A stretch of DNA of 64,000 bases from an uncultured bacterium (GCA_905214285.1 CAJMLI010000002.1:101015-165014); one strand, 5' to 3'; shown: positions 16,232 to 42,159, numbered from the stretch's first letter. Numbers and translations are program-made. The notes: a model not told the origin generated them from the letters alone.

Positions 16232-16244
16232 CGATACAACACAG

Positions 16245-16426: not shown

Positions 16427-17083
16427 ATGACCCTTCTCGAACTGTTCCAGCTGCTGAAGAAGCACCTCAAGCTGGTCATCACCCTTCCGGTGGTCTGCGC
16501 GATCGCCATGGGCATCGTGTCCTTCGTTGCGATGGACAACACCTATACCGCGACGACGAGCATGTACATTCTCGCCAAGACCGACGATAGCGGTCAGATG
16601 AGCTACAACGATCTCTCGGCGAGCCAGATGCTTTCCAACGATATCGCCACGCTGCTGGATAGCGATAGCGTTAAGAGCGGCGCCGCCAAAGAACTGGGCC
16701 TCACCGATTTGGATGACTACAAGGTGTCTGTTTCCTCCGAGACCACCACGCGTGTCATTACGCTTTCGGTTACCGGCACCGATGCCAAGGAGACGGCTGA
16801 GGTCGCAAAGGCCATTGCCAGCTCGGTGAGTACGGTCGCTCAGAACGTCGGCGCTGCCCAGAGCATCAACGTTATCGACGAGGCTAAGACCCCCGAAGCC
16901 CCCAGCGGCCCCAAGCGCACGCTGTATATTGCCGTCGCGTTCCTCGCCGGTATCTTTATCGCAGTTGCCTATGTCGTTTTGGCAGACATGCTCAATACCC
17001 GCATCCGCGGTGCCGAAGAGGCAGAAGAGCTCCTGGGTATTCCCGTTGTTGGCCGAATTCCGGCTATGAAAGGTGGTAAATAG
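16427..17083 (+). CDS. Wzz/CpsC-type chain-length determinant (BY-kinase transmembrane modulator)
   Basis: Two TM segments flanking an extracytoplasmic domain. Located directly upstream of a BY-kinase gene. Confidence 0.75.
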   Translation: MTLLELFQLLKKHLKLVITLPVVCAIAMGIVSFVAMDNTYTATTSMYILAKTDDSGQMSYNDLSASQMLSNDIATLLDSDSVKSGAAKELGLTDLDDYKVSVSSETTTRVITLSVTGTDAKETAEVAKAIASSVSTVAQNVGAAQSINVIDEAKTPEAPSGPKRTLYIAVAFLAGIFIAVAYVVLADMLNTRIRGAEEAEELLGIPVVGRIPAMKGGK

Positions 17084-17085
17084 GC

Positions 17086-17823: not shown

Positions 17824-17840
17824 TTGATTAGGGCCGACCT

Positions 17841-18491
17841 ATGCGTGACATTCATTGCCATATCTTGCCGGGTGTAGACGACGGCGCCGCCGATCTCGAT
17901 GAGAGCTTGGCGATGCTCGAGGCTGCCAAGCGGGCCGGTGTAACCAGAATCGTTTGCACTCCTCACTGCCGTGATCCCTATTTTGATTACGACAAGATGT
18001 GGGATGCCTTTGAGCTGCTGCGCGATAACGCTGACGGTTTTCCGCTCCAGATGGGCTTCGAGGTCAACCATCGAAAACTCGTTGAACTTGGTATCGATGC
18101 CGCGGAGCACTTGCATTTCGATGGGACCAACGAGTTCCTGCTCGAGCTTTCGACGCATGCCGATGCGTATGCGTTTAGAGAATACGAGAACACGATTTAC
18201 GATTTGCAGTGCCGTGGCTACCAGGTGATCATCGCTCATCCTGAGCGCTATCGTGCGGTTCAAAAGGATGTAAGCGTGGCGGAGCGCCTAGTCGATATGG
18301 GCTGCAAACTGCAGGCTTCGGCGGACTTTATTGCCGGCGGTCGCTTTGGTCGCGAGAAAAAGCCGGCCCAGCGCCTGTTCGATCAGAACCTGTACAGCTT
18401 CATCGCGAGCGATGCCCATAACGTGGGCCATTACGACTGCCTGGCGAAGGCTCGCGCGAAGTTTAGCGTGCGCGGAGCTCATTTTCGCTAA
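17841..18491 (+). CDS. CpsB/YwqE-type PHP-family protein-tyrosine phosphatase
   Basis: N-terminal DIHCHILPGVDDG metal-binding motif, followed by further His motifs (CTPHC, IIAHPERY). Confidence 0.8.
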   Translation: MRDIHCHILPGVDDGAADLDESLAMLEAAKRAGVTRIVCTPHCRDPYFDYDKMWDAFELLRDNADGFPLQMGFEVNHRKLVELGIDAAEHLHFDGTNEFLLELSTHADAYAFREYENTIYDLQCRGYQVIIAHPERYRAVQKDVSVAERLVDMGCKLQASADFIAGGRFGREKKPAQRLFDQNLYSFIASDAHNVGHYDCLAKARAKFSVRGAHFR

Positions 18492-18530
18492 AATCTGTCC
18501 CTAACGTTCGCGTTGAATGAAAGGGCAGCT

Positions 18531-19031
18531 ATGGATATCCAACTTAAGACGGGATGCTTTGATGACGCGGCGTTGGTGCGCCGCGTCGTTTTTATGGACG
18601 AGCAGGGCTACGAGAATGAGTTTGACGCTATCGACGAGGATCCGAACTGCATCCATGTGACGCTCTATGTAGACGGTGAGCTTGCCGGTTGCTCGCGCGT
18701 GTTTCCCGAAGAACTCGAGCGCGCAGCTGACGCAGAGGCTCCGGTGTCGCCGGCGTGCGACTTGGACGAAGGCGTCGCGGCGGGGGAGACCTACATTATG
18801 GGGCGCGTGGCCGTGCTGCCGAGCATGCGCCGTCGCGGTTTGGCGAGCAAGATTGTCGAGGCCAGTGATACGTGCGCGCGTGATGCCGGCGCCAAGCTCA
18901 TTAAGCTGCACGCGCAGGAATACGTGCTGCCGCTCTATGCCAAGGCGGGTTACACGCAGATTGCCCCGGTGGACTACGAAGACGAGGGCCAGCCCCATGT
19001 TTGGATGGCCAAGCGCGTAGATGGCAGATAG
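18531..19031 (+). CDS. GNAT family N-acetyltransferase
   Basis: Acetyl-CoA-binding motif VLPSMRRRGLASKIVEA. The ORF opens at 18513; ATG 18531 has an AAAGGG RBS. Confidence 0.7.
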   Translation: MDIQLKTGCFDDAALVRRVVFMDEQGYENEFDAIDEDPNCIHVTLYVDGELAGCSRVFPEELERAADAEAPVSPACDLDEGVAAGETYIMGRVAVLPSMRRRGLASKIVEASDTCARDAGAKLIKLHAQEYVLPLYAKAGYTQIAPVDYEDEGQPHVWMAKRVDGR

Positions 19032-19233
19032 GGACGTTCTTTTTCTGCCGGCAGTTGGGGACACTCCTTGGCAATTGGCGCATTGGAACGCTCGGACATA
19101 CAGTTTTTCGATACCGTGTGTATATATGCGCGCTAATGGGTTATAAAATCTAAGTCTGAACATAGCAGGTCTGCGATGCGGCTCGGGCAACTGGGCCGTT
19201 TTTGCGGACGGGGGTAGCGCGAAGGGACTGCAC

Positions 19234-21258
19234 ATGCGTCAATTTAAGACCGAGAGCAAAAAACTGCTCGACCTCATGATCAACTCCATCTACACCAATA
19301 AGGAAATCTTCCTGCGCGAGCTTATCTCTAACGCGAGCGACGCCGTCGACAAGCTCAACTTTAAGAGCCTGCAGGACCCGAGCGTTAAGATCAACCAGGG
19401 CGACCTGGCCATTCGCGTCTCCTTCGATAAGGATGCCCGCACCATCACGATTTCGGATAACGGCATCGGCATGACCGCTGAGGAGCTCGAGCGCAACCTG
19501 GGCACCATCGCCCACTCCGGCTCCGAGGAGTTTAAGACCGAGAACGCCGAGCAGCAGGGCTCCGATGTCGACATCATCGGTCAGTTTGGCGTGGGCTTCT
19601 ACTCGGCTTTTATGGTCGCCAGCCATGTGAAGGTCGTCAGCCGCGCTTATGGCGAGGATACCGCCCACGTTTGGGAGTCCGACGGTCTTGAGGGCTACAC
19701 CATCGAGGATGGCGAGCGTGCTGAGCACGGTACCGATGTCATTCTGACGCTGCGCGAGAACGAGAAACTCGACGCCGACGGCGAGGCCGAGACCTACGAT
19801 CGCTTCCTGACCGAGTGGGGCCTCAAGAGCCTGATTCAGCAGTACAGCAACTATGTGCGCTACCCGATTCAGATGATGGTGAGCAAGAGCCGCCAGAAAC
19901 CCAAGCCCGAGGACGCCGGCGACGACTACAAGCCCGAGTACGAGGACTACCAGGAACTCGAGACCATCAACTCCATGACGCCGATCTGGAAAAAGCGCAG
20001 CTCCGACGTTGAGCAGAAGGATTACAACGAGTTCTACAAGTCCACATTCCACGACTTTGACGATCCCGCGCGCACCATCAGTTTCCATGCCGAGGGCACG
20101 CTCGAGTACGACGCCCTGCTGTTTGTGCCGGGCCGCGCTCCGTTCGATCTGTACAGCAAGGACTACGAGAAGGGCCTGGCGCTCTACAGCTCCAACGTGC
20201 TGATTATGGAGAAGTGCGACGACCTGCTGCCCGACTACTACAACTTTGTGCGCGGTGTCGTGGACTCTGCCGACGTGACGCTCAATATTTCGCGTGAGAC
20301 GCTGCAGCAGAACCGTCAGCTCAAGGCCATCGCCAAGCGCGTGGAAAAGAAGATTACCGCCGACCTTGAGGATATGCGTGACAACGACCGTGAGGCCTAC
20401 GAGAAGTTCTTTGAGAACTTTGGCCGCGGTCTTAAGTACGGCATCTACTCGAGCTATGGCATGAAGGCCGATGAGCTCGCCGACCTGCTGCTGTTCTGGT
20501 CTGCCAAGGAACAGAAGATGATTACCCTGGCCGAGTATGCCAAGGGCATGCCCGAGGGCCAGAAGGCAATCTACTATGCCGCCGGCGATTCGCGCGAGCG
20601 TCTGGCCAAGATGCCCGTCGTGAAGGGCGTGCTCGACCGCGGCTACGATGTACTGCTGCTGACGCAGGACGTGGATGAGTTCACCTTCCAGGCCATGCGT
20701 GAGTACGTGGCTGCCGATATGCCCAAGGTCTACGACGATGACACTGCTCGCGAGGCTGCCGAAAAGGCAGTTGCCGATGGTGCCGAGCCTGAGGTCGAGG
20801 ATCGTCACCTAGAGCTTAAGAACGTCGCGACCGGCGATCTTGACTTGGCGACCGATGACGAGAAGAAGGAGGCCGAGGACGCCACCAAGGAGAACGAGGA
20901 CCTCTTTGGCGCTATGAAGGAGGCACTCGGCGACAAGGTCGAGAAGGTTGCCGTCTCTGCGCGTCTGACTGACGCTCCCGCCTGCATCACCACCGAGGGC
21001 CCGCTTTCGCTCGAGATGGAGAAGGTGCTCCAGAAGGGTCCCGAGGGCGCGCCCGACGGTATGCCCAAGAGCCAGCGCGTGCTCGAGCTCAACGCCAAGC
21101 ATCCGGTCTTTGCCAAGCTCGTCGCTGCTCAGAAGGCAGGCGATGCCGACAAGATTAAGCAGTACTCCGGCCTGCTCTACGACCAGGCCCTGCTCGTCGA
21201 GGGTATCCTCCCCGAGGACCCCGTGGCCTTCGCGGCGGCTGTCTGCGATCTACTTTAG
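19234..21258 (+). CDS. htpG: Molecular chaperone HtpG (Hsp90)
   Basis: LRELISNASDAVDK, GQFGVGFYSAFMVA, full-length 674 aa. Confidence 0.9.
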   Translation: MRQFKTESKKLLDLMINSIYTNKEIFLRELISNASDAVDKLNFKSLQDPSVKINQGDLAIRVSFDKDARTITISDNGIGMTAEELERNLGTIAHSGSEEFKTENAEQQGSDVDIIGQFGVGFYSAFMVASHVKVVSRAYGEDTAHVWESDGLEGYTIEDGERAEHGTDVILTLRENEKLDADGEAETYDRFLTEWGLKSLIQQYSNYVRYPIQMMVSKSRQKPKPEDAGDDYKPEYEDYQELETINSMTPIWKKRSSDVEQKDYNEFYKSTFHDFDDPARTISFHAEGTLEYDALLFVPGRAPFDLYSKDYEKGLALYSSNVLIMEKCDDLLPDYYNFVRGVVDSADVTLNISRETLQQNRQLKAIAKRVEKKITADLEDMRDNDREAYEKFFENFGRGLKYGIYSSYGMKADELADLLLFWSAKEQKMITLAEYAKGMPEGQKAIYYAAGDSRERLAKMPVVKGVLDRGYDVLLLTQDVDEFTFQAMREYVAADMPKVYDDDTAREAAEKAVADGAEPEVEDRHLELKNVATGDLDLATDDEKKEAEDATKENEDLFGAMKEALGDKVEKVAVSARLTDAPACITTEGPLSLEMEKVLQKGPEGAPDGMPKSQRVLELNAKHPVFAKLVAAQKAGDADKIKQYSGLLYDQALLVEGILPEDPVAFAAAVCDLL

Positions 21259-29755: not shown

Positions 29756-29801
29756 ATAGGCCAAAGCGCATTGCCGCTTGTCCGCTTCGTCCGTGGCTAC
29801 C

Positions 29802-29861
29802 GCGGCGGCGCATCTGGCCGAACGAGCCCCCATACCCTCGTTCGGTCAGATGCGCCGCCGC
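29802..29861 (+). promoter_or_regulatory. Long hairpin (about 25-bp stem, 1 mismatch, 10-nt loop) upstream of hisS, followed by a TATAAT -10 box at 29879-29884
   Basis: gcggcggcgcatctggccgaacgag cccccatacc ctcgttcggtcagatgcgccgccgc. Confidence 0.4.
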
Positions 29862-29926
29862 TGTATGTGTTTGTGCCGTATAATGACCGTTACCTATGAC
29901 GCGATACAAAAGAAAGGTGTTTGCCC

Positions 29927-31240
29927 ATGCAGGCACAGAAGGCGGAGGGAACCCGCGACCTTATCGGCGCCGAGATGCGCGCCTGGCAAAAGATGCAGCA
30001 GATTGCGGCCGGCGTGTTCGAGCCGTTTGGTTTTAAGCCCATCGAGACGCCCGCCATCGAGCAGGTGGACGTGTTTGTCCACGGTATCGGCCAGTCGACC
30101 GACGTCGTGCGCAAGGAGATGTTCCGCGTGTTTAGCGGCGCCAACCTGGAGCGCGTCTTTACCGAAGGCACCGACACCAAGCTTAAGCCCAAGCAGCGCC
30201 TGGCCCTTCGTCCCGAGGGCACGGCCGGTGTGGTGCGCGCCGTCGTGGAGAACAACCTGGTGCCCCAGGGCTCCACGCCGTTTAAGGCTTATTACGCCGA
30301 GGCCATGTTCCGTGGCGAGCGTCCCCAGAAGGGTCGCCTGCGCCAGTTCCACCAGGTGGGCATCGAGTGGCTCGGCGCTCCCGATCCGGCGGCAGACGCC
30401 GAGTGCATCATCATGCTCATGGAGTTCTACAAGCGCCTGGGCTTCGACCTTTCCAAGCTCCGTCTGCTTATTAACTCGATGGGCGATGCGCAGTGCCGTC
30501 CGGCATACCGCGAGCAGGTCAAGCAGTTTATCCTCGATCACGCCGACGAGATGTGCGACGAGTGCCGCGAGCGCGCCGAGCTCAATCCGCTGCGCGCCTT
30601 CGACTGCAAGAACGACCATTGCCGCGAGATCATGGCCGACGCCCCGCTGATGGGCGACAACCTGTGTGACGAGTGCCGCGAGCACTACGAGCAGGTCAAG
30701 CGCTATCTGGATGCCGCCGGTATCGAGTATGTCGAGGATCCCACCCTGGTGCGCGGCCTGGACTACTACACCCGTACTGTCTTTGAGGTCGAGGCTCCCG
30801 GTGCCGGTGTCGGCTCCATCGGTGGCGGCGGTCGCTATGACGGCTTGGTCGAGCTCGAGGGTGGCAAGCCCACGGCCGGCGTCGGCTTCGCCGTCGGTTT
30901 TGAGCGCGCCCTGCTGGCCCTTCAGGCATTTGGTAACGACTTGGGTGCCGAGGAGGCCCCGTGCGTCTACGTCGCCAATGCCGGCAAGGAGCTGCGTCAG
31001 AACGTCTTTGCCATCACGCAGGAGCTTCGCGCCGCAGGCATCGTGACCGAGGCCGACTACCAGGGTCGTTCGCTCAAGGCCCAGTTTAAGCAGGCCGACA
31101 AGGTGGGCGCCAAGCTCATTTTGGTCTTGGGCGGCGACGAGCTTGCCGCCGGCAAGGTCAAGGTGCGCGACATGGAGAGCCATGACGAGGTTCTCGTCGA
31201 TTTGACCAACGTGGTCGAGGCGGTTCGCGAGCGCCTGTAG
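29927..31240 (+). CDS. hisS: Histidyl-tRNA synthetase HisS
   Basis: Class IIa motifs (ALRPEGTAGVVRAV, FHQVGIEWLG, GGGRYDGL). ATG at 29921 or 29927. Confidence 0.9.
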   Translation: MQAQKAEGTRDLIGAEMRAWQKMQQIAAGVFEPFGFKPIETPAIEQVDVFVHGIGQSTDVVRKEMFRVFSGANLERVFTEGTDTKLKPKQRLALRPEGTAGVVRAVVENNLVPQGSTPFKAYYAEAMFRGERPQKGRLRQFHQVGIEWLGAPDPAADAECIIMLMEFYKRLGFDLSKLRLLINSMGDAQCRPAYREQVKQFILDHADEMCDECRERAELNPLRAFDCKNDHCREIMADAPLMGDNLCDECREHYEQVKRYLDAAGIEYVEDPTLVRGLDYYTRTVFEVEAPGAGVGSIGGGGRYDGLVELEGGKPTAGVGFAVGFERALLALQAFGNDLGAEEAPCVYVANAGKELRQNVFAITQELRAAGIVTEADYQGRSLKAQFKQADKVGAKLILVLGGDELAAGKVKVRDMESHDEVLVDLTNVVEAVRERL

Positions 31241-31485
31241 CGCATCTTTTTGAGCTGCGGGCCTGCTAACGTGCCCTGCTCATGGAGAGCGATTGTTACG
31301 GGGGTGTTTCGCATTTATGCGGAATGCCCCCGTTTGCATATGCCGTCCACCGAGAAATACGACCATTTGGGGCAAAAAGCCTTGCAATGCAGAAAATACT
31401 TTTGTGTGGTAAAGCGCAATCAGCGTCGAAAGTTTTTGCCGAGTGCCTATAATAAATACCGCATGTTACGTGCATAGAAGGAGGA

Positions 31486-34311
31486 ATGGGAGGAAACGTG
31501 GCTGAGAACCTAAGCAACCAGTCTGTACCCGAAGCCGCGGCGCGCGTCGCTGCCGTGGTCAACCGCCTCGTTAACCGAATCGGCTCGAATGCCGAATCCA
31601 AGGAGCGTCTCGCCGAGATCGAGATCCCCGAGGAGCTGCGCGACAATCTGGCGCTGTTCTTGCGCCTGGAGCGCCGTGTGCTTAGCGAGTATGATCCCGA
31701 GATCGCGGACCTGTTCGACAAGATTTTGACAGCCGAGATTGTGGCCAATGCCGGCAACCCCGGTAGCCGTGCTGCCGACGAGTCCGTCGACGAGCAGGGC
31801 GTGCCCACTGCCGACGAGCCCACCGCCGTGGCGTTTCGCGAGGTTGTCGATATGATCGACAGCCTGCCGCTCGATAAACAGCAGGTTATCGTCCGCGCCT
31901 TTACGAGCTTCTTCCATCTGGCAAACCTGTCGGAGGAGAATTACCGTGTGGCGCAGCTGCGCGAGCGCGAGGCCGGCGCATCGACCGATACCGAGGTCGA
32001 TCCTGCCAACGAACTCACCGTCGCCTATCACCAGTTGGTAAACGAGATGGGTGTCGAGGGCGCCAACGAGCTGCTCGGCAAGCTCGAGTTCCACCCTGTC
32101 TTTACCGCACATCCCACCGAGGCCCGTCGTAAGGCCGTCGAGGGCAAGATTCGCCGTATCTCCAACCTGCTGGAGGAGCGTCCGCGTCTGGGCGGTTCCG
32201 ACCTGGTGGAGAACGAGCGCCATATGCTGCAGGAGATCGACGCCCTGGTGCGTACGAGCCCCATCGCGCTCAAGAAACCCACGCCGGTCGAGGAAGCCGA
32301 TACCATCATCGACATCTTCGATAACACGCTGTTCGACGTTATTCCCGTCATCTATCGTCGTTTTGATGACTGGGTGCTGGGCGATAAGGCCGGCACCGTG
32401 CCGCCGCTGTGCCCGGCGTTCTTCCACCCCGGCAGCTGGATCGGTTCCGACCGCGACGGTAACCCGAACGTCACCGCCAAGGTGAGCCGCGAGGTCGCTG
32501 CCAAGTATTTCACCCATATGGTGCTCAAGCTCGAGGACAAGTGCCGCCGCATCGGCCGCAACCTCACGCTCGAGGCCACCTACAGCAAGCCGTCTGCCGA
32601 GCTCATCAACCTGTGGAACCATCAGGTCGAGATGAGCACTCAGTACACCGCACGTGCTGAACTAATCTCCGAGCACGAGCCGCATCGCGCCGTCATGCTC
32701 GTCATGGCCGACCGACTCAACGCCACCGTGCGTCGCATCACCGACACCATGTACCACAGCGCCGATGAGTTCCTGGAGGACCTGCGCGTCGTCCAGCGCT
32801 CGCTGGCCGCCTGCGGTGCCGTCCGTGCTGCCTACGGCCCGGTCCAGACCATCATCTGGCAGGTCGAGTCCTTCGGCTTCCACATGGTCGAGATGGAGTT
32901 CCGTCAGCACTCCGTGGTGCACGCCCGCGCCCTCAAGGATATCCACGAGAACGGTATCCATGGTGATCTGCAGCCCATGACGCGCGAGGTCATCGATACC
33001 TTCCGCGCTATCGGCTCCATCCAAAAGCGTTACGGCAAGAAGATGGCGCACCGCTACATCATCTCGTTCACCAAGAGCGCCCAGCATGTGGCCGACGTCT
33101 TTGAGCTTGCCCACCTGTCCTTTGCGCATGAGGAGGATGTCCCCGAGCTCGACGTGATCCCGCTGTTCGAGCAGCTCGAGGACCTCGAGGGCTGCGTCGA
33201 CGTGCTCGACCAGATGCTTACGCTGCCCGTGGTGCAAAAGCGCCTTGCCCAGACCAACCGTCGCATGGAGGTCATGCTGGGCTATTCCGACTCCTCCAAG
33301 GATGCCGGTCCTACCACGGCTATGCTCGCGCTGCACTCCGCACAGGAGCGTATTGCCAAGTGGGCCGAGAAGAACGATATCGATCTGGTGCTCATGCACG
33401 GTCGCGGCGGTGCCGTGGGCCGTGGTGGCGGCCCGGCCAACAAGGCCGTGCTGGCGCAGCCCAAGGGTTCGGTCAACTGCTTCTTTAAGCTCACCGAGCA
33501 GGGCGAGGTCATCTTTGCCCGTTACGGTAACCGCACGCTGGCTCAGCGCCATGTTGAGTCCGTTGCCGCTGCAACGCTTTTGCAGTCGGCCCCGAGCGTC
33601 GAGAAGACCAACACCGAGACCACGCAGAAGTTCTGGGATATGGCCGAGAAGCTCAACGCTGCAAGCCACGAGCGCTATCTGGATCTGCTGAACACCGAGG
33701 ACTTTACACCGTGGTTCTCGACCGTGACGCCGCTGACCGAGGTCGGTCTGCTGCCGATCGGCTCGCGCCCGGCCAAGCGCGGTCTGGGTGCCAAGTCGCT
33801 CGACGACCTGCGTACCATTCCGTGGATTTTCAGCTGGAGCCAGGCTCGCATTAACCTGGCCGCTTGGTACGGTCTGGGTACCGCCTGCGAGCAGCTGGGC
33901 GATCTTGACCAGCTCAAGGCTGCCTACCAGGAGTGGCCGTTCTTCCGCACGTTCATCGACAACATCGAGATGTCGATCGCTAAGACCGACCAGCGCATCG
34001 CCAAGATGTATCTGCACCTGGGCGATCGCCAGGATCTGTCCAAGAAGGTCTTCACCGAGATGCAGCTCACGCGTAAGTGGGTCCTTGCCATCGTCGGTGA
34101 CGAGTGGCCGCTACAGCGCCGTCGCGTGCTTGGCTGCGCCGTTCGCGTGCGTAACCCCTATGTCGACGCCCTGTCCATCGCTCAGGTCCGCGCCCTTCGC
34201 GAGGTGCGTATGAACCAGGACGAGATGGCCGAGGAGAAGAAGGCCGAGTACATGAGCCTGATTCTTTCGACTGTGACCGGCGTCTCGGCAGGATTGCAGA
34301 ACACGGGGTAA
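31486..34311 (+). CDS. ppc: Phosphoenolpyruvate carboxylase Ppc
   Basis: VFTAHPTEARR, GYSDSSKDAGPTTA, C-terminal LQNTG. The start is ambiguous (ATG 31486 or GTG 31498). Confidence 0.9.
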   Translation: MGGNVAENLSNQSVPEAAARVAAVVNRLVNRIGSNAESKERLAEIEIPEELRDNLALFLRLERRVLSEYDPEIADLFDKILTAEIVANAGNPGSRAADESVDEQGVPTADEPTAVAFREVVDMIDSLPLDKQQVIVRAFTSFFHLANLSEENYRVAQLREREAGASTDTEVDPANELTVAYHQLVNEMGVEGANELLGKLEFHPVFTAHPTEARRKAVEGKIRRISNLLEERPRLGGSDLVENERHMLQEIDALVRTSPIALKKPTPVEEADTIIDIFDNTLFDVIPVIYRRFDDWVLGDKAGTVPPLCPAFFHPGSWIGSDRDGNPNVTAKVSREVAAKYFTHMVLKLEDKCRRIGRNLTLEATYSKPSAELINLWNHQVEMSTQYTARAELISEHEPHRAVMLVMADRLNATVRRITDTMYHSADEFLEDLRVVQRSLAACGAVRAAYGPVQTIIWQVESFGFHMVEMEFRQHSVVHARALKDIHENGIHGDLQPMTREVIDTFRAIGSIQKRYGKKMAHRYIISFTKSAQHVADVFELAHLSFAHEEDVPELDVIPLFEQLEDLEGCVDVLDQMLTLPVVQKRLAQTNRRMEVMLGYSDSSKDAGPTTAMLALHSAQERIAKWAEKNDIDLVLMHGRGGAVGRGGGPANKAVLAQPKGSVNCFFKLTEQGEVIFARYGNRTLAQRHVESVAAATLLQSAPSVEKTNTETTQKFWDMAEKLNAASHERYLDLLNTEDFTPWFSTVTPLTEVGLLPIGSRPAKRGLGAKSLDDLRTIPWIFSWSQARINLAAWYGLGTACEQLGDLDQLKAAYQEWPFFRTFIDNIEMSIAKTDQRIAKMYLHLGDRQDLSKKVFTEMQLTRKWVLAIVGDEWPLQRRRVLGCAVRVRNPYVDALSIAQVRALREVRMNQDEMAEEKKAEYMSLILSTVTGVSAGLQNTG

Positions 34312-34339
34312 TCGATAACCCTGTAGTCGTCCGGGTCCG

Positions 34340-34451
34340 CCATCAGTTTACTTTTAGGCACGTCCTCGGACATGCAAGAAGCCCTCGCTGCGCACTTCGT
34401 GCGGCGAGGGCTTCTTGCGTCCTGCGGAGTGTGCCTAAAAGTAAACTGATG
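34340..34451. repeat. 112-bp palindromic repeat element, copy 1: 22-bp perfect outer inverted repeat (ccatcagtttacttttaggcac / gtgcctaaaagtaaactgatgg) around a ~68-bp core (cgtcctcggacatgcaagaagccctcgctgcgcacttcgtgcggcgagggcttcttgcgtcctgcggagt) carrying a nested hairpin
   Basis: Read directly from the sequence. A related copy lies at 36813-36932. Confidence 0.8.
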
Positions 34452-34727
34452 GGGCCCTACGATGTCCGGTCTTCGGCGGATTACTGCTGGGGAAAAGATA
34501 GCGCGCTTCGCGCGTTTTGGATGGGGTCTGTCTCGGCGGCGCGTTTGGCGCTTCTCGCCTTGCGACTGTAGCGCCCGCGGTCCTCATTGGGACCACGGCC
34601 GTTTTGTTATGGGTCAAATATGAACGTTGTGTTAATGAGTCGGTGGACGGTGGTGTTTTTCGGTGAGCGGCGTATCCTTCCAACGGTTTGACTAGTGTGT
34701 CAGTTGAAAGGAAGAGGGCGCTCGTCA

Positions 34728-36005
34728 ATGTTTGAATGTGAACTACCGTTTGACCACAAGACGTTGCATCTGGAGCTCGAGGACAAGAACTTCGCGGGTG
34801 TGATGGAAGGTCATCAAAACGAGTTTAAGACTACAAAATCGCAGGAAGAGCTGGTAGAGGAGTCGCTTGCCAACCCTTATGGCTCGCCTTCGCTCGAGGA
34901 GCTTTGTGCTGGCAAAAAGGATATCGTAATTATCAGCTCTGACCATACGCGTCCCGTTCCTTCGCGTGTGACGATGCCTATTCTGCTGCATCACATTCAT
35001 GCCGCTGCGCCCGAGGCCCGTGTGCGTATTTTGGTTGCTACGGGTATGCACCGTCCGTCGACGCACGAGGAGCTCGTCAATAAGTATGGCGAGGACATCG
35101 TTGCCAACGAGGAAATCGTTATGCATGTCGCGACCGACGACAGCATGATGAAAAAGATCGGCACCCTGCCTTCTGGTGGCGAGTGCATCATCAACAAGAT
35201 TGCGGCCGATTGCGATCTGCTGCTTGCCGAGGGCTTTATTGAGCCGCACTTCTTTGCCGGTTTCTCTGGTAGCCGCAAGTCCGTCCTGCCTGGCATCGCC
35301 AGCTACAAGACCATCATGTACAACCACAACGGTCAGTTTGTGAACGATTCCCACTCGCGTGCCGGCAACCTGTGCCACAACCACGTGAGCGAGGACATGT
35401 TTGCCGCCGCCGAGATGGCTCACCTTGCCTTTGTGCTCAACGTGGTGCTCAACGGCAAGCACGAGGTCATTGGCTCCTTTGCCGGCGACATCCACAAGGC
35501 GCACGAGGCTGGCTGCGAGTTCGTGAAGAGCCTTGCCGGCGTTGAGCCCGTCGAGTGCGAGATCGCCATTACCACTAACGGCGGCTACCCCCTCGATCAG
35601 AACATCTATCAGGCTGTGAAGGGCATGTGCGCTGCCGAGGCCACGCTTCCCGAGGGCGGCGTGATCATCGACGTCGCCGGTTGTGCCGACGGTCACGGCG
35701 GCGAGGGCTTCTATCACAACATCGCCGACAACGATCCGGCAGAGTTTGAGCGCGCCTGTATCGATCGTCCTAAGGACGAGACCCTGCCCGATCAGTGGAC
35801 GAGCCAGATCTTTGCCCGCATCCTGGCGCATCACCCCGTGATCATGGTCACCGACCTGTGCGATCACCAGATGCTCAAGGATATGCACATGACGCCGGTC
35901 AACACCCTCGAGGAGGCGCTCAAGCTCGCCTTTGAGATGAAGGGTGCCGACGCCAAGGTCGCCGTCATCCCCGATGGCCTGGGTGTTGTCGTCGCGCAGC
36001 ACTAG
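34728..36005 (+). CDS. larA: Lactate racemase LarA family protein (nickel-pincer-nucleotide-dependent racemase/epimerase)
   Basis: LarA/DUF2088 architecture. SDHTRPVPS motif, conserved His/Lys positions (KSVLPG, HNHV), about 425 aa. RBS AAGGAAGAGGG precedes ATG 34728. Confidence 0.7.
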   Translation: MFECELPFDHKTLHLELEDKNFAGVMEGHQNEFKTTKSQEELVEESLANPYGSPSLEELCAGKKDIVIISSDHTRPVPSRVTMPILLHHIHAAAPEARVRILVATGMHRPSTHEELVNKYGEDIVANEEIVMHVATDDSMMKKIGTLPSGGECIINKIAADCDLLLAEGFIEPHFFAGFSGSRKSVLPGIASYKTIMYNHNGQFVNDSHSRAGNLCHNHVSEDMFAAAEMAHLAFVLNVVLNGKHEVIGSFAGDIHKAHEAGCEFVKSLAGVEPVECEIAITTNGGYPLDQNIYQAVKGMCAAEATLPEGGVIIDVAGCADGHGGEGFYHNIADNDPAEFERACIDRPKDETLPDQWTSQIFARILAHHPVIMVTDLCDHQMLKDMHMTPVNTLEEALKLAFEMKGADAKVAVIPDGLGVVVAQH

Positions 36006-36054
36006 TGCGCGGCTTAAACGAATCGTTTATAACCGACAAGAAAGATAAGGTTTT

Positions 36055-36786
36055 ATGCTTACCAAACTCCTCTGCGAATTCGGCGCGACGGCCCTCATGA
36101 TCGTCTTTGGCGTGGGCGTGCACTGCGATACCGTGCTCAAAGGCACCAAGTATCAGGGCTCCGGCCATATGTTTGCCATCACCACCTGGTCTTTTGGCAT
36201 CTCGGTCTGCCTGTTTGTCTTTGGCGGCGCCGTGTGCATGAACCCCGCTATGGTGCTTGCCCAGTGCATCGTCGGTCTGGTGCCGTGGGGCAACTGCATC
36301 CCCTTCATGCTTGCCGATATGCTCGGCGGCTTTGTGGGTGCCGTGATCGCTTGGTTTATGTATGCCGATGAGTTCAAGGCTTCCGAGGGTGTCGTCGATC
36401 CCATTGCCCAGCGCAACATCTTCTCGACCAACCCCACCACCGAGGGTACGAACTATGCCCGCAACTTCTTCTGCGAGGCAATCTGCACCTTTGTGTTCAT
36501 TAGCGCCATCCTTGCTGCTGCTAGCCGTGCTGGTGAGGACGTTTTGATGCTCGCCATCTGCGTCGGCCTGATTGTCTGGGCCGTTGGCATGGGCATGGGC
36601 GGCATCACCGGCTTCGCTATGAACCAGGCACGTGACCTTGGTCCCCGCCTTGCTTATCAGGTGCTGCCGATTAAGAACAAGGCTGACAACAACTGGAAGT
36701 ATGGTCTGCTTGTTCCTGGCATCGCGCCGTTTGTCGGTGCTATTGTCGCCGCGCTGTTTGTGCACGGTTTCTTGGGCATGTTCTAG
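36055..36786 (+). CDS. MIP-family channel (aquaglyceroporin, LarD/GlpF-like)
   Basis: Six TM helices. First NPA box intact (CMNPAMV); second box reads NQA (AMNQARDLGPR). Adjacent to larA, as with the lactic-acid channel LarD in Lactobacillus. Confidence 0.8.
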   Translation: MLTKLLCEFGATALMIVFGVGVHCDTVLKGTKYQGSGHMFAITTWSFGISVCLFVFGGAVCMNPAMVLAQCIVGLVPWGNCIPFMLADMLGGFVGAVIAWFMYADEFKASEGVVDPIAQRNIFSTNPTTEGTNYARNFFCEAICTFVFISAILAAASRAGEDVLMLAICVGLIVWAVGMGMGGITGFAMNQARDLGPRLAYQVLPIKNKADNNWKYGLLVPGIAPFVGAIVAALFVHGFLGMF

Positions 36787-36812
36787 TCGAAGGACGGCTC
36801 TATAAGGTTCGG

Positions 36813-36932
36813 GCTCGGCAAGGGTTTACTTTCCAACGCGTCCTCGGACATGCAAAAAGGCTCGCTGCGCACTTTGTGCGGCGAGCCTTTTTGCGTCCTG
36901 CGGAATGCGTTGGAAAGTAAACCCTTGCCGAG
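36813..36932. repeat. 120-bp palindromic repeat element, copy 2: 26-bp outer inverted repeat (gctcggcaagggtttactttccaacgc / gcgttggaaagtaaacccttgccgagc) around the same core as copy 1 (cgtcctcggacatgcaaaaaggctcgctgcgcactttgtgcggcgagcctttttgcgtcctgcggaatg)
   Basis: Read directly from the sequence. Confidence 0.8.
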
Positions 36933-37109
36933 CCCTGGGCATTCTTGGCTGTGTTCGAACAAGCAACCCAACATATATATCTGAATTTGGATGTGAGGGG
37001 CGCTTTGTTTTTGGGTGCCCTTACAAGAAAGCGTGACTTGGGGATGGGATGGGCACTTTGCTTTTTAGTGCCCTGAGATGGGGGCGAGACTTTGGAATGA
37101 GAGGCTAAC

Positions 37110-37649
37110 TTAGGTGAAGAGGGGCTGTATGGCTGATAGGTAGTCTTTGGCTACGTCGGCTTTGTCTGCTTGGAAGTTGTGCCAGGCCCACCATTGGACC
37201 ATTCCTACGAAGCTTGAGGCTATGTGGTGTAGTAGGAAACTGCGGTCCATGGTGCCGGCGGGGCCTGCGGGGTCGACGGGGACGGTTTCGGCTGCGCGCG
37301 ACATGATGGTCTTGCGGAGACAGTCGGCGAAGACGCGTGAGCCGGCGCCGGCTACGAGGGCTCGAACGCCCTGGCGGCGTTCCCAGAGATTGTTGAGGAT
37401 ATGCTCGACCTGCACGAGTGGGTCGTCGAGCGGTGTGCCATCGTCGTCAAGAGCGTGGGTGCAGATGTCGCTCACGAGTTCGGACAGTAGGTCGTCTTTG
37501 CTCTTAAAGAGACCGTAGAATGTCGCGCGGCCTACGTGAGCGCGAGCGATGATGTCGCCGACGGTGATCTTGCCGTAATCTTCCTCGCGCAGGAGCTCGG
37601 AGAACGCCGCAACGATGGCGGCGCGGCTTTTTGCCTTGCGGGCATCCAT
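37110..37649 (-). CDS. TetR/AcrR family transcriptional regulator
   Basis: N-terminal HTH (AAIVAAFSELLREEDYGKITVGDIIARAHVGRATFYGLFKSKDDLL). True start is M72 of the listed ORF; upstream of it the frame is Arg-rich nonsense overlapping larC. Confidence 0.8.
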   Translation of the reverse strand: MDARKAKSRAAIVAAFSELLREEDYGKITVGDIIARAHVGRATFYGLFKSKDDLLSELVSDICTHALDDDGTPLDDPLVQVEHILNNLWERRQGVRALVAGAGSRVFADCLRKTIMSRAAETVPVDPAGPAGTMDRSFLLHHIASSFVGMVQWWAWHNFQADKADVAKDYLSAIQPLFT

Positions 37650-37651
37650 GG

Positions 37652-38572
37652 CTATGCGTCCGCGTGAACGAGCAGGCAGCGGAGCGTGCCGGAGCAACCC
37701 TCGTAGGGGCGTTTGCCGGCGCCGTAGCCGACAGCTTCGATGCGGTAGCGTGAGGGCAGTTGGTCGGACGTACGCAGGGCGGTGACGATGGCGGCGCCTG
37801 TGGGCGTTACGAGCTCGCCAGCGACCGGTGCAGGCGTGAGAGCGATATTGCCCGCCTGGCACAGGTTGACGACAGCGGGGACGGGAATGGGCATGAGGCC
37901 GTGTGCACAGCGGATGGTTCCGTGGCCCTCGGAGAGCGACTCGACCACGATGTCCTCAATGCCCAGGTCATCGAGGCAGATGGCGACAGAGCAGACGTCG
38001 ACGATGGAGTCGATGGCGCCCACCTCGTGGAACATGACGGTCTCGGGCGTTTTGCCGTGAGCCTTGGCCTCGGCAGCGGCGAGTGCGGTAAAGATGGCGA
38101 GGGCGCGACGCTTGGCGCCATCGCTTAGCTGCGAGCCATCGATAATGGCGGTGACGTCCGCCAAAGACCGGTGGTGATGGTGGTGGGCGTGATGATGCCC
38201 CTCGTGGCCATGGCCGTGGATCTCATGGTCATGGTCGTGTGTGTGCTCGTGCTCATGCTCGTCATGGTCATGATGATGGTGGTGCTCATGCTCATGCATA
38301 TGCTCGACAGCTGCTTCGTTGCCGTAGAGCCAGGCCATATCGTGGTCGTGGTTCTCGAGCTCCTCTGCCAGCTGAACGTCAAAGTCGCAGGCGTCGATGC
38401 CGTGCTTGTTTACGCGCGTGACGGCGATCGAAAAGCCATCGACCGGCAGCGTGGCGAGCTGTTCGCGCAGCTGCTCCTCACTGGCATCCAGGTCGAGCAG
38501 GGCCGCAACGGTCATATCGCCGCTGATGCCCGAGGTGCCGTCGATGATAAGCGTGTGCTGATGGTTGGACAT
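37652..38572 (-). CDS. larC: LarC N-terminal (DUF111/LarC1) domain protein with a His-rich linker; the C-terminal CTP-hydrolysing domain appears to be absent
   Basis: N-terminus TLIIDGTSGISGDMTVAALLDL matches the LarC/DUF111 start. A long HEHEHHHHHDHDEHEHEHTHDHDHEIHGHGHEGHHHAHHHHH tract follows. The ORF ends 2 nt from the tetR start, at about 306 aa. Confidence 0.65.
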   Translation of the reverse strand: MSNHQHTLIIDGTSGISGDMTVAALLDLDASEEQLREQLATLPVDGFSIAVTRVNKHGIDACDFDVQLAEELENHDHDMAWLYGNEAAVEHMHEHEHHHHHDHDEHEHEHTHDHDHEIHGHGHEGHHHAHHHHHRSLADVTAIIDGSQLSDGAKRRALAIFTALAAAEAKAHGKTPETVMFHEVGAIDSIVDVCSVAICLDDLGIEDIVVESLSEGHGTIRCAHGLMPIPVPAVVNLCQAGNIALTPAPVAGELVTPTGAAIVTALRTSDQLPSRYRIEAVGYGAGKRPYEGCSGTLRCLLVHADA

Positions 38573-38582
38573 GGGATGCTCC

Positions 38583-39365
38583 TTAGCGGGCGCAGGGCGT
38601 GCCGGCGCTCAGATGATTGATAAGACTTGCCTGGTAGGCGGCACCAAAGCCGTTGTCGATATTGACGACCGAGACGCCGCTGGCGCAGGAGTTGAGCATG
38701 GCGAGCAGCGCGGCCACGCCACCAAAGTTCGCGCCGTAGCCCACGCTGGTGGGAACGGCGATGACCGGGCAACTCACCAGGCCGCCGATGACGCTCGCCA
38801 GGGCGCCTTCCATGCCGGCGATGGCGATGACCACCTGCGCCTGGGCAAGTTCCTCGGCATGCGCAAGCAGGCGGTGCAGCCCGGCGACGCCCACGTCGTA
38901 AAGGCGATCGACTTCGTTGCCATAGAACTCGGCCGTCAACGCGGCTTCCTCGGCGACGGGCAGGTCGCTCGTGCCGGCGCAGGCGACAACGATGCGTCCG
39001 TTGCCGGTAGGGGAGGGCTTGCCGCCCACGAGGGCGAGCTGCGCGTCCGGGACATATCCCAGGTCGATGCCGTTGCCGAGAAGCTCCGAGGTGCGGGCGG
39101 CCTTTTTGGCGTCCAGGCGCGTGACCAGGATGCGCTCCTGGCCGGCATCGCGCAGCGCTTTGATAATGGCGGCAATCTGATCGGCGGTTTTACCGGCACC
39201 GTAGACAACCTCGCCGGCTCCCTGGCGCACCCCGCGCGAAAGATCGAGCTGCGCAAAGCCCAAATCGGCGGTCGGAGCCGTCTGGATGCGCGTGAGGGCG
39301 ACGGCCGGGGTGACTGCCCCGCCGGCAACATCGCTCAGTAACTGCTCAAGATCTCGCTTATCCAT
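38583..39365 (-). CDS. larB: LarB (PurE-like carboxylase for nickel-pincer cofactor synthesis)
   Basis: PurE/AIR-carboxylase-like C-terminal half (IVVACAGTSDLPVAEEA...VIAIAGMEGALASVIGGLVSCPVIAVPTSVGYG) plus a LarB N-extension. ATG 39365 with GAAGGGAA RBS; an alternative GTG lies at 39398. Confidence 0.7.
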   Translation of the reverse strand: MDKRDLEQLLSDVAGGAVTPAVALTRIQTAPTADLGFAQLDLSRGVRQGAGEVVYGAGKTADQIAAIIKALRDAGQERILVTRLDAKKAARTSELLGNGIDLGYVPDAQLALVGGKPSPTGNGRIVVACAGTSDLPVAEEAALTAEFYGNEVDRLYDVGVAGLHRLLAHAEELAQAQVVIAIAGMEGALASVIGGLVSCPVIAVPTSVGYGANFGGVAALLAMLNSCASGVSVVNIDNGFGAAYQASLINHLSAGTPCAR

Positions 39366-39479
39366 ATATGTTCCCTTCGACGGCGCAAAGTCTAGCACTC
39401 AAAGGGTATGTTTCCGAACATTAAGACAAAATTGTTCGGAAACTATAGGACAGACTGATTCAATTGTTAGACGGATCGA

Positions 39480-40115
39480 CTAGTCACGCAGGATGATGTC
39501 CATGGCGAGCATCAGATTGCGCTCGTCGATGGCAAACGGGGCGGCCTCGCGCGTCTTGGGCTTGGCACAAAACGCGATGCCCGTGCCCGCGGCCTGAATC
39601 ATGGGGATGTCGTTGGCACCGTCGCCGATCGCGACGGTGTGGGCCATGTCGACGCCGCACTCAACTGCCCAGTCCAGCAGCTGGATGAGCTTGGACTCCT
39701 TGGTCACAATGTCGGCAGCCAACTTACCGGTGAGCTTGCCGCCTACGACCTCCAGACGGTTGGCCAGGCAAAAGTCGATTCCCGCGGCGGCCACGATCTT
39801 GTCGGCAACCTCGTGGAAGCCGCCACTTACGACGCCGACCTTCCAGCCCTTGCTGTGCGCCGAGCGCACAAGCTCCAGCGCGCCGGGGGTAAACGTCACG
39901 CGCTCAAAGGTGCGCTCGAACACGCTCTCGTCCAAGCCGGCAAGCAGCCCCACGCGCTCCTCGAGCGCTTGCTTAAAGTCAAGCTCGCCGCGCATGGCGC
40001 GCTCGGTGATCTGCGCCACTTGCTTGCCCACGCCGGCTTCCTCGCCCAACAGGTCGATGACCTCCTGGTTGATGAGCGTGGAGTCGATATCCATAACGAT
40101 GAGGCGTGCAGTCAT
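39480..40115 (-). CDS. serB: Phosphoserine phosphatase SerB (HAD family)
   Basis: HAD motif I VMDIDSTL, motif II/III (SGGF..., IGDGANDIPMIQAAGTGIAF). Start at the internal ATG (M24 of the ORF). Confidence 0.75.
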   Translation of the reverse strand: MTARLIVMDIDSTLINQEVIDLLGEEAGVGKQVAQITERAMRGELDFKQALEERVGLLAGLDESVFERTFERVTFTPGALELVRSAHSKGWKVGVVSGGFHEVADKIVAAAGIDFCLANRLEVVGGKLTGKLAADIVTKESKLIQLLDWAVECGVDMAHTVAIGDGANDIPMIQAAGTGIAFCAKPKTREAAPFAIDERNLMLAMDIILRD

Positions 40116-40371
40116 GGCGGGCCTTTCCAAGTGCAGTTGTATTGGGGCACATTGTCGCACGTGACGAGCGCGGGCGGGTGTCACGGCGCGTCAATTGTTT
40201 CGTCTCCGTCAAGTCTTTGGGCAGGAGCCACTTTTTCGCGGCACATCGACGCGAGTGCGATAAGATAGAACGCCATGTCTGGCTGCGCGGTTTACGCAGG
40301 CTGGGCAAATCTGTACGACGCCGCCCGGAACGACACGGGGCGGCACAGATCCATAAAGGAGGATCACTGGT

Positions 40372-42159
40372 ATGAGCCAGACCCGTCCCATCGATGAGCA
40401 TTCCATGCACACCCGTACCTGCGGCGAGCTTCGCTTCGAGAACGTGGGCGAAGAGGTCACCCTCACCGGTTGGGTGAGCCGTCGCCGCGACCACGGCGGC
40501 CTTATCTTCTGCGACCTTCGCGACCGTGAGGGCATCACGCAGCTCACCTTCGACCCCGAGCACTCCGACGGCGACGCCTTTAAGATCGCCGAGACCATGC
40601 GTCCCGAGTGGCCCATCAAGATTCACGGCGTCGTGCGCGCCCGTGGCGAGGAGACCACCAACACCAAGCTCGCGACTGGCGAGATCGAGGTCCTGACCGA
40701 CCACGCCGAGGTGCTCAACACGTCCGTCACCCCGCCGTTCCAGATCGAGGACGGCATCGAGACCAGCGAGGACACCCGCCTGCGCTATCGCTATCTGGAC
40801 CTTCGTCGTCCCGAGATGATGGCCAACCTCAAGCTGCGCTCCGACTTTACCTTTGCCATTCGCGAGGCGCTGCACAACCGTGAGTTCATGGAGGTCGAGA
40901 CGCCCTCCCTGTTCAAGTCCACGCCCGAGGGCGCCCGCGACTTCATCGTCCCCAGCCGCATCCAGCCGGGCAACTTCTACGCCCTGCCGCAGTCCCCGCA
41001 GCTCCTGAAGCAGCTGCTTATGGTCGGTGGCGTCGAGCGCTACTATCAGGTTGCCAAGTGCTTCCGCGACGAGGACTTGCGTGCCGACCGTCAGCCCGAG
41101 TTCACCCAGGTCGATATCGAGATGTCCTTCGTGGACCAGAACGACGTTATGAGCGCGCTCGAAGAGGTTCTTGCCGATGCCTTCGGCCGCATGGGTGTCG
41201 AGATGCCCACGCCGCTGCGTCGCATGAACTACTGGGAGGCCATGGACACCTATGGCTCCGACAAGCCCGATACCCGCTATGGCATGCACTTGGTCGACCT
41301 GACCGACATCTTCGCCAACTCCAAGTTCAAGGTCTTTGCGACTGCCGCGAACGAGGAGGGCTCTGTCGTCAAGGCCATCAACGCCAAGGGCGCCGGTGCC
41401 TGGGCTCGCGCCAAGATCGATAAGCTTGCCGGCGTGGCTTCCACGTTTGGCGCCAAGGGCCTTGCCTGGATCGCCTTCCGCGAGGACGGCTCCATCAACA
41501 GCCCCATCGTCAAGTTCTTCTCGGACGAGGAGATGGCTGCCCTGCGCGAGCGCATGGACGTCGAGCCCGGCGACCTTGTGATGTTCGCCGCCGGCCCGCG
41601 CCTGCTCTCCGACGAGATCCTGGGCGGCATGCGTTCCCACATGGCTAACGCGCTCGAGATCAAGCGCGAGGGCCACGACTTCTTGTGGGTCGTCAACTTC
41701 CCGCTGTTCCACTGGGACGAGGACCGCAAGGCTTACGCTGCCGAGCACCAGCCCTTCACCCTGCCGACCGAGACCGACATCGCCAAGATCGAGGCCGACC
41801 CGCTGGCAGCCGGTTCCTGCACCTACGACTTTGTCATGGACGGCTTTGAGGCCGGCGGCGGCGGTATGCGTATCCACAACGCCGAAATGCAGATGTCCAT
41901 GCTCAAGCTCCTGGGCTTTACCGAGGAGCGCGCCGAGTCGCAGTTCGGCTTCCTCATGGAGGCTCTCAAGTTTGGTGCGCCCCCGATGGGCGGCTTCGCC
42001 CTGGGCCTGGACCGCGTGTGCATGCTGCTCACCGGCTCCGACTCCATCCGCGACGTCATGGCGTTCCCCAAGACGGCCAGCGGCTCCGACCTCATGTCGG
42101 GCGCCCCGAGTGCCGTTTCCGGCGCCCAGCTCAAGGACGTCAGCCTGCGCCTGATGTAG
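40372..42159 (+). CDS. aspS: Aspartyl-tRNA synthetase AspS
   Basis: OB-fold N-terminus, class II motifs (FRDEDLRADRQPEFTQVD, GGGMRIHNAEMQ, GFALGLDRV), 595 aa. Confidence 0.9.
   Translation: MSQTRPIDEHSMHTRTCGELRFENVGEEVTLTGWVSRRRDHGGLIFCDLRDREGITQLTFDPEHSDGDAFKIAETMRPEWPIKIHGVVRARGEETTNTKLATGEIEVLTDHAEVLNTSVTPPFQIEDGIETSEDTRLRYRYLDLRRPEMMANLKLRSDFTFAIREALHNREFMEVETPSLFKSTPEGARDFIVPSRIQPGNFYALPQSPQLLKQLLMVGGVERYYQVAKCFRDEDLRADRQPEFTQVDIEMSFVDQNDVMSALEEVLADAFGRMGVEMPTPLRRMNYWEAMDTYGSDKPDTRYGMHLVDLTDIFANSKFKVFATAANEEGSVVKAINAKGAGAWARAKIDKLAGVASTFGAKGLAWIAFREDGSINSPIVKFFSDEEMAALRERMDVEPGDLVMFAAGPRLLSDEILGGMRSHMANALEIKREGHDFLWVVNFPLFHWDEDRKAYAAEHQPFTLPTETDIAKIEADPLAAGSCTYDFVMDGFEAGGGGMRIHNAEMQMSMLKLLGFTEERAESQFGFLMEALKFGAPPMGGFALGLDRVCMLLTGSDSIRDVMAFPKTASGSDLMSGAPSAVSGAQLKDVSLRLM

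Follow-up and report, generated by a model that had tools for sequence, protein, structure and literature searches.

A lactate racemase gene island in the variable ppc–aspS interval of the Collinsella aerofaciens species complex

The 64 kb stretch of DNA analysed here as one strand, which we call the window and whose coordinates are used throughout, carries between positions 29756 and 40371 the genes of a nickel-pincer nucleotide lactate racemase (lar) system, lying between the histidyl-tRNA synthetase gene hisS and the aspartyl-tRNA synthetase gene aspS. A preliminary description had read these genes, together with the phosphoenolpyruvate (PEP) carboxylase gene ppc, as a 9-kb insertion parting hisS from aspS. 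The observation is accurate, but its interpretation is half right: within the family hisS and ppc form a conserved pair, aspS is regulated as a unit of its own, and the lineage-specific segment is ∼6 kb (34313-40280), not 9 kb. The explanation that we regard, as a whole, as likely is that hisS-ppc and the leader-regulated aspS are resident and that the ∼6 kb between them would be a cargo slot, holding a lar island and the phosphoserine phosphatase gene serB. The island, or at least its larA-larD module, would have moved horizontally among Coriobacteriales families, and would have been in place before the Collinsella aerofaciens complex diversified, under purifying selection since. Taken as a whole, the locus is a genomic islet of an ordinary kind.

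The interval between ppc and aspS

The window comes from the C. aerofaciens species complex. A scan with the hisS protein over one genome per GTDB species recovered 80 loci with 99-100% identical hisS, nearly all labelled Collinsella or Coriobacteriaceae. Genes were assigned from a listing of open reading frames (ORFs) and from Pfam and NCBIfam scans, and gene order in relatives was mapped by tblastn; every gene named in the preliminary description (hisS, ppc, larA, a channel gene, tetR, larC, larB, serB and aspS) is present by Pfam or NCBIfam. On the left, hisS (ORF 29921-31240, + strand, likely start 29927; Pfam tRNA-synt_His and HGTP_anticodon) is followed by ppc (31486-34311, + strand; Pfam PEPcase, 728 bits), the left anchor of the variable slot. 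On the right, the anchor is an RNA leader (40277-40360, + strand; Rfam RF02930, 76.1 bits with a gathering score of 42.5) that precedes aspS (40372-42159, + strand; Pfam tRNA-synt_2, GAD and OB fold), while serB (39480-40184, − strand; NCBIfam SerB equivalog, 238 bits, cutoff 144) is divergent from aspS. Throughout the C. aerofaciens complex the gene order is hisS-ppc-larA-larD-tetR-larC-larB-serB-aspS, with larA directly after ppc in 54 of the 56 loci that contain at least 2.5 kb past ppc, and all six genes present in 45 of the 47 loci that contain at least 6.3 kb.

Deeper synteny was read from the genomic contexts of hisS homologues at 84-86% identity. In C. tanakaei the order is hisS-ppc, a three-gene amino-acid ABC transporter on the opposite strand, and aspS; C. 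ihumii has the same arrangement plus an AAA_14/DUF4143 gene; and in Enorma phocaeensis hisS-ppc is followed by a hypothetical gene and rplM-rpsI, and aspS does not occur within 10 kb. Since the hisS-ppc pair is kept in all three, ppc is resident and is not inserted content as had been proposed. DNA homology between the window and C. tanakaei or C. ihumii breaks off precisely at the ppc stop (34312) and resumes at 40281-40283, the start of the RF02930 leader, beyond which aspS is 84-86% identical. Rfam identified no T-box, and a separate aspS leader was found instead. The pairing of hisS with ppc, the aspS leader and the positions at which homology ends together yield the three conclusions given at the outset. 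They also speak against a 9-kb insertion into a hisS-aspS pair. A comparison of hisS-aspS synteny with relatives does reveal a variable interval, but it is that between ppc and aspS, and hisS adjoins aspS in no relative sampled. These arrangements support the view of the ppc-aspS interval as a variable cargo slot, occupied by the lar genes and serB here and by an amino-acid ABC transporter in C. tanakaei and C. ihumii. For annotation, this means that the expectation of hisS-aspS adjacency derived from Firmicutes fails in Coriobacteriia, and that the real variable unit is the ppc-aspS interval.

We note two exceptions to the common gene order, both near the palindromic element R1 that follows ppc (described below). 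In L058, a 5.6 kb segment (14545-20145) encoding a two-component system and an ABC/FtsX transporter is inserted right after R1, and in L069 homology is lost ∼60 nt past R1, with at least 6.7 kb of genes lacking a Pfam match from position 14597. Between ppc and larA, Collinsella loci have a spacer of 337 to 1270 nt. At the other end of the locus, position 29756, from which the described range runs, is not the hisS start but falls in the spacer upstream of that gene. The length of this spacer varies strongly among Collinsella loci, and just upstream of hisS it contains a separate near-perfect hairpin (29798-29865; 29-nt arms, 93% complementary, 10-nt loop) that is unrelated to the palindromic elements discussed below.

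The lar island and its cofactor genes

The island consists of two convergent arms. The rightward arm comprises larA (34728-36005, + strand; NCBIfam Ni_dep_LarA equivalog NF033504, 600 bits, cutoff 460), which encodes a nickel-pincer-dependent lactate racemase, and larD (36055-36786, + strand; NCBIfam LacAcidTportLarD equivalog NF043012, 418 bits, cutoff 390), which encodes a D/L-lactic acid channel of the MIP family. LarA belongs to the lactate-specific subgroup, with the NCBIfam models for malate racemase and other LarA homologues below their cutoffs. The leftward arm begins with larB (38583-39398, − strand; NCBIfam LarB equivalog NF033503, 286 bits, cutoff 175), encoding the nicotinic acid adenine dinucleotide (NaAD) carboxylase/hydrolase of nickel-pincer cofactor synthesis. 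It continues with larC1 (37652-38572, − strand; Pfam Ni_insertion, NCBIfam nickel_LarC1), encoding the nickel-binding half of the LarC cyclometallase with a His-rich region, and ends with a tetR-family regulator gene (37110-37649, − strand; Pfam TetR_N). The preliminary description had called this a split locus, but the two-arm layout appears to be native to the Coriobacteriales lar island and not a product of insertion.

Comparison with other genomes suggests that the island is probably shared horizontally among Coriobacteriales families. LarA homologues fall off in steps of identity, from 98% (C. aerofaciens complex) through 90, 86, 82 and 76% to 64-68% in Anaerococcus and Clostridium, and their genomic surroundings differ. 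At 90% (L214), larA-larD lies between a cation-efflux gene and FTHFS/ruvABC; at 86% (L084) and 82% (L215, in a cluster named Parolsenella) it lies directly after coaE-uvrB; and at 76% (L085) it lies beside Crp regulators, with larB and a full-length larC (455 aa) 4 kb off. In every relative context larA precedes the MIP channel gene larD. The larA-larD pair is found alone in at least three other contexts, and either the island or this module in at least five unrelated ones. Another family is represented by Paratractidigestivibacter (Atopobiaceae; L216-L218), whose LarA falls in the same 90% cluster as that of the window. Its island, in 68% GC DNA between degV and an oligopeptide transporter, has larA-larD and then a convergent tetR-larC(535 aa)-larB-larE arm; gene order and orientation are the same as in the window, but LarC is full-length, larE is present, and the flanks are unrelated. 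LarA and LarD are 91% identical between the two, TetR, LarC1 and LarB are 66-70% identical (TetR 66%), and nucleotide similarity is limited to coding regions. The patchy, mobile character attributed to the locus is thus borne out for its lar part, found in unrelated contexts and in another family at 66-91% protein identity.

Substitution rates between the families point the same way. The number of synonymous substitutions per synonymous site (dS) is 0.78 for larA and 0.87 for larD, no larger than the dS of 0.75-0.98 (0.80 for C. tanakaei) between hisS of C. aerofaciens and that of its congeners, and among hisS matches of at least 84% identity none is named outside Coriobacteriaceae. The identity of LarA and LarD, these dS values and a shared architecture within unrelated flanks are what argue for horizontal sharing. 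The biosynthesis arm has a cross-family dS of 1.1-2.2 and a nonsynonymous rate (dN) about four-fold higher than that of larA and larD, and the larA-larD module may possibly have been exchanged more recently. Within the complex, dS is 0.21-0.32 for the lar genes and 0.17-0.21 for hisS and ppc, and dN/dS is 0.025 for larA, 0.063 for larD, 0.084 for tetR, 0.10 for larC1, 0.077 for serB and 0.019 for hisS. Because dS is near that of the flanking genes and dN/dS is low, the ancestor of the complex must already have carried the lar block, which is fixed in the complex and has been kept by purifying selection.

As encoded in the window, the cofactor pathway looks incomplete. A larC gene is present as had been noted, but only as its LarC1 half: the ORF (306 aa) covers positions 1-234 of the 375 in the Ni_insertion profile and matches nickel_LarC1, and full-length LarC proteins (L085, L217) align to it over the N-terminal 283-297 residues only. 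The tetR ATG lies 2 nt past the larC1 stop, at a place where in Paratractidigestivibacter (L217 12707-14314, − strand) tetR follows the 535-aa LarC, and for this reason the Collinsella gene appears to have cleanly lost the linker and LarC2 domain relative to Paratractidigestivibacter. It is LarC2 that contains the CTP (cytidine triphosphate)-binding site and from which the hexameric core of LarC is built (PMC13510736). The 64-kb window has no match to LarC2 and no larE, as judged by the PP-loop motif (SGGxDS) and by tblastn with the Paratractidigestivibacter LarE; in the 2.4 Mb of fetched loci, matches to LarE and LarC2 occur in non-Collinsella loci only. In the position that larE occupies in the complete Paratractidigestivibacter island stands serB. 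A search for homologues of the Paratractidigestivibacter LarE gave named matches in Paratractidigestivibacter, Slackia, Aveggerthella and 'Coriobacteriia', and among the 120 best-listed LarE clusters none is attributable to Collinsella or near the size of the 18,356-member LarA cluster, a weak negative. The truncated larC1 is intact in about 45 genomes. The cofactor pathway would thus putatively need completion from elsewhere in the genome.

Some further features of these genes may be recorded. The His-rich region of larC1 (38172-38300, − strand) is made of imperfect tandem CAT/CAC-rich repeats whose length varies between strains, and LarC1 is 84-99% identical among strains, compared with 94-99% for its neighbours. 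Another non-canonical LarC arrangement is seen in L219 (8001-10007), where the gene after larE encodes a 449-aa protein in which LarB (AIRC) is fused to a LarC1 fragment (Ni_insertion positions 61-203); this locus was considered as a source of Collinsella larE and rejected, as it belongs to a different, high-GC organism.

Upstream of larB, a perfect inverted repeat with 11-nt arms, GTTTCCGAACA-N12-TGTTCGGAAAC (39410-39443), overlaps a promoter-like site (39470-39442, − strand). It is identical in 46 loci and occurs once in the window. The repeat is a plausible operator for the TetR protein encoded at the end of the arm, and the larB-larC1-tetR arm would probably be autoregulated through it; no similar site was found upstream of larA. 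At the convergent ends of the arms, between the second palindromic element and the tetR stop, are two small hairpins (36998-37075) of the form GGG(C/G)(G/A)C-N11-G(T/G)GCCC (gggcgctttgtttttgggtgccc, gggcactttgctttttagtgccc).

A dispersed family of palindromic elements

The two palindromic elements reported in the preliminary description are real. R1 (34329-34457, + strand; 133 bits with covariance model R1) begins 18 nt past the ppc stop and has an RNA fold energy of −98.3 kcal/mol (z = −14.9), and R2 (36807-36935, + strand; 142 bits) begins 21 nt past the larD stop, between the convergent larD and tetR, and folds with −107.3 kcal/mol (z = −17.8). The covariance model identified no further copies in the 64-kb window. 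The two do not bracket the lar cassette or the 9-kb block, as had been supposed, but enclose larA-larD only (2.4 kb). Most Collinsella loci have R1 in the orthologous position, and R1 and R2 are each orthologously conserved while being only ∼75-80% alike.

Nor are they the ends of a cassette, since they belong to a dispersed family of ∼125-nt hairpins. When metagenomes were scanned with the 16-nt core GTCCTCGGACATGCAA, complete elements built in the same way turned up in human-gut contigs of Collinsella type, where, besides ppc and larD, they follow genes for groEL (L103), pyruvate formate-lyase pflB (L183, L157), an Fe-alcohol dehydrogenase adh (L090), a class IV aminotransferase (L180, L195) and an ABC ATPase (L193). 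In each of these contexts, of which there are at least seven, the element lies past the stop codon of a co-oriented gene, typically by 20-50 nt. Covariance model R1 identified no copies in the C. tanakaei, C. ihumii, Enorma, Parolsenella or Paratractidigestivibacter loci, and the Paratractidigestivibacter larD-tetR spacer is 93 nt long compared with 323 nt in the window. Because no other lar context carries such an element, the palindromes are a Collinsella feature superimposed on the island; they neither form part of a cassette nor mark the boundaries of the island. Many matches of the metagenome scan proved to be a coding 16-mer of soil organisms, unrelated to the element, and were set aside, and those in viral contigs were chance 16-mer matches to the core only. 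No Rfam family matched the palindromes at the gathering threshold or at E ≤ 10, other than generic long-hairpin microRNA models. A reading as attC sites of integron cassettes was also rejected: conservation is central, the outer arms are variable, and there is no integrase nearby.

An alignment of 22 diverse copies reveals two invariant segments, CGTCCTCGGACATGCAA and TTGCGTCCTGCGGA, within a 57-base-pair rod whose other positions covary freely. Changes on both sides affect 36 of the 57 pairs, and 97.7% of cells are paired, compared with 44-48% in slid-partner controls; none of 500 shuffles reached the observed values. The hairpins most likely act as bidirectional terminators or as elements that protect 3′ ends. 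That they are consistently oriented and that the + strand folds slightly better both favour a role in the transcript of the upstream gene, and the apex of R2 (A5-GGCTCGC...GCGAGCC-T5), as read from the sequence, has the A5-stem-T5 form of a bidirectional terminator-like hairpin, the tail of R1 being weaker, with TTCTT after the stem. Some observations count against this role, which is proposed from position, orientation and shape: a simple terminator scan called neither R1 nor R2, and G-U pairs are nearly absent among the varying pairs. From this scarcity it follows that complementarity is kept on both strands. The pattern fits complementarity maintained on the two DNA strands at least as well as it fits selection on one RNA strand, and would be compatible with a bidirectional terminator, with a palindrome acting at the DNA level, or with maintenance by arm-to-arm copying.

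The hairpins are also targets of an IS110-type insertion sequence. In many contigs an IS110-family element lies at fixed points inside the element cores and encodes DEDD_Tnp_IS110 and Transposase_20 domains; in L092 (163-1551, − strand) these are carried by a 462-aa protein. Junctions are present in eleven loci (L089, L092, L123, L133, L134, L151, L170, L173, L181, L184 and L197), one joining ...TTGCGTCCTG to ACGCTCCTATTTGGCAAGG and that at the other end joining ...AAATTAAATTGGT to GTCCTCGGACATGC. This suggests targeting of the invariant cores by the IS110 element in the manner of a bridge RNA. Chimeric elements in L118, L163 and L198, together with the replacement of half of R1 by a second subfamily in L068, identify the palindromes as recombination and insertion hot spots. 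Many contigs of metagenome-assembled genomes stop right after ppc or right after larD. The hairpin family is a useful marker: metagenome assemblies break on it at this locus, IS110 targets it, and it marks hot spots. The second subfamily has cores GTCCTCGCAC and GTGCTGCGGAGTG and is found after ppc in some strains (L068 14400-14550), where it is followed by the 3′ half of R1 only; 62-nt half-matches of its type occur in L005, L012, L015, L018 and others.

Alternative histories and known systems

Several considerations weigh against a horizontally acquired island in the ppc-aspS slot. The GC content at third codon positions (GC3) is 0.73-0.74 for larA, larD and tetR and 0.78-0.79 for larC1 and larB, while the 33 genes of the window have a mean of 0.78 (standard deviation 0.046), so that the lar genes have z-scores of −0.9 to +0.2. 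Their codon-usage distances, except that of the short tetR, are within the range of the window. The foreign signature for which the preliminary description had looked to GC3 and codon usage is thus missing, and with it any hint from composition that the genes are of recent foreign origin. The island borders have no integrase, transposase or tRNA gene; the ORF and Pfam listing has no mobility gene between 31 and 42 kb, and the nearest tRNA genes lie below 9.3 kb. The argument for transfer relies on within-genus dS baselines and on database taxon labels, the fetched loci sharing no cross-family housekeeping orthologue, and the lower divergence of larA-larD could come from stronger constraint and codon bias instead of more recent transfer. 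As to the direction of change at the slot, Enorma, without aspS within 10 kb, does not polarise it, and the island could have been ancestral at ppc-aspS and replaced in the lineage of C. tanakaei and C. ihumii.

Such considerations are taken furthest by a history of vertical inheritance and differential loss, in which the island would be ancestral to Coriobacteriales and ancestral at this slot, relatives would have lost or moved it, and the LarA and LarD identities would reflect strong constraint only. It would account for the uniform composition, for a within-complex dS the same as that of the flanking genes, for the two-arm architecture common to both families and for a biosynthesis arm just 66-70% identical across families, as old divergence predicts. 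We nevertheless think it unlikely, while granting it some weight, given the number of unrelated contexts in which the island or the larA-larD module is found, a cross-family larA dS that is not above the within-genus values for hisS, and a LarA that is 91% identical across families when hisS named outside the family never reaches 84%. Far less credible is the insertion of the whole 9-kb block, ppc, lar genes and serB together, into a once-adjacent hisS-aspS pair. Operons of hisS and aspS are known from Bacillus and Lactobacillus, and the two genes are merely 9.1 kb apart here, but the conservation of hisS-ppc in three other Coriobacteriaceae, the typical codon usage of ppc (distance z-score −1.4), the RF02930 leader in the place of a T-box and the lack of a single sampled relative with the two genes adjoining make this history highly improbable. 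Mobilisation of larA-larD as a cassette by way of the flanking palindromes, through hairpin recombination or IS110 with the repeats as functional ends, would suit the fact that the repeats enclose exactly larA-larD, that this pair travels alone in relatives, that recombinant elements (L118, L163, L198) and insertions at or after R1 (L058, L068, L069) occur, and that an IS110-family element targets the palindromes. Yet elements of the family flank larA-larD in no other context and follow many unrelated genes, R1 and R2 are diverged and each orthologously conserved, and no Collinsella locus has larA-larD excised with a single hybrid element left behind, and we consider such a cassette very improbable.

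A different doubt concerns whether the lar locus works at all, for it could be a decaying, non-functional remnant with LarC2 and LarE missing. The clean deletion of LarC2 just ahead of tetR, the absence of larE within 64 kb and the lack, among the 120 best-listed LarE clusters, of one that matches the LarA cluster in size would all agree with decay. All lar ORFs are however intact in about 45 species-level genomes, dN/dS (0.025-0.10) is like that of housekeeping genes, and LarA and LarD both score above their equivalog cutoffs, so that decay has in our view little to recommend it. There is a somewhat larger, though still small, chance that, if LarC2 and LarE are absent elsewhere in the genome too, the cofactor would be synthesised or acquired in a non-canonical way, or LarA, LarB and LarC1 used otherwise, and that the hairpin family, with its two invariant cores, is possibly a new element recognised by a protein or an RNA and not a plain terminator. 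A selectively maintained arrangement with LarC1 only and without LarE is worth following up, as a cofactor pathway adjacent to its enzyme that lacks two canonical parts. C. aerofaciens is abundant in the gut, and a conserved lactate racemase and lactic-acid channel would imply interconversion or uptake of D/L-lactate.

Three known systems offer a comparison, in addition to the Paratractidigestivibacter island. The hisS-aspS operon with a T-box, known from Firmicutes, resembles the window in that both genes lie on the same strand within 10 kb, but the two are adjacent in none of the sampled Coriobacteriaceae, and in the window Rfam found no T-box and aspS has an actinobacterial aspS RNA leader of its own; the Firmicutes operon is not the ancestral state in the Coriobacteriaceae here. 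The larABCDE operon of Lactiplantibacillus plantarum, reportedly described by Desguin and colleagues in 2014 as a nickel-pincer nucleotide lactate racemase system, shares with the window LarA, LarB and LarD proteins that match the equivalogs, a nickel domain of LarC1 type with a His-rich stretch, and a larA that adjoins a channel gene. It differs in being a single operon, where the window has two convergent arms, and in its Crp-type LarR regulator, where the window has a TetR-family protein; in the window, LarC is without the CTP-binding LarC2 domain and there is no larE nearby.

The palindromes, finally, are comparable to the REP/BIME and ERIC (IRU) elements of enterobacteria and pseudomonads, which are likewise dispersed imperfect palindromes of intergenic 3′ regions that receive IS110-family insertions; IS110 elements insert site-specifically into REP elements (PMC1525189, PMC11208160). 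Their sequences are unrelated to those of the Collinsella element and come from a different phylum, and REP elements have a REP-associated tyrosine transposase (RAYT), whereas no RAYT has been linked to the Collinsella element and none was seen in the window. The Collinsella element is also set apart by the invariant CGTCCTCGGACATGCAA and TTGCGTCCTGCGGA inside a freely covarying 57-bp rod. In size, however, its ∼125 nt are close to the ∼127 nt of ERIC. Elements of the REP and ERIC kind are already known, and a hairpin family with invariant cores that is targeted by IS110 is one that merits follow-up.

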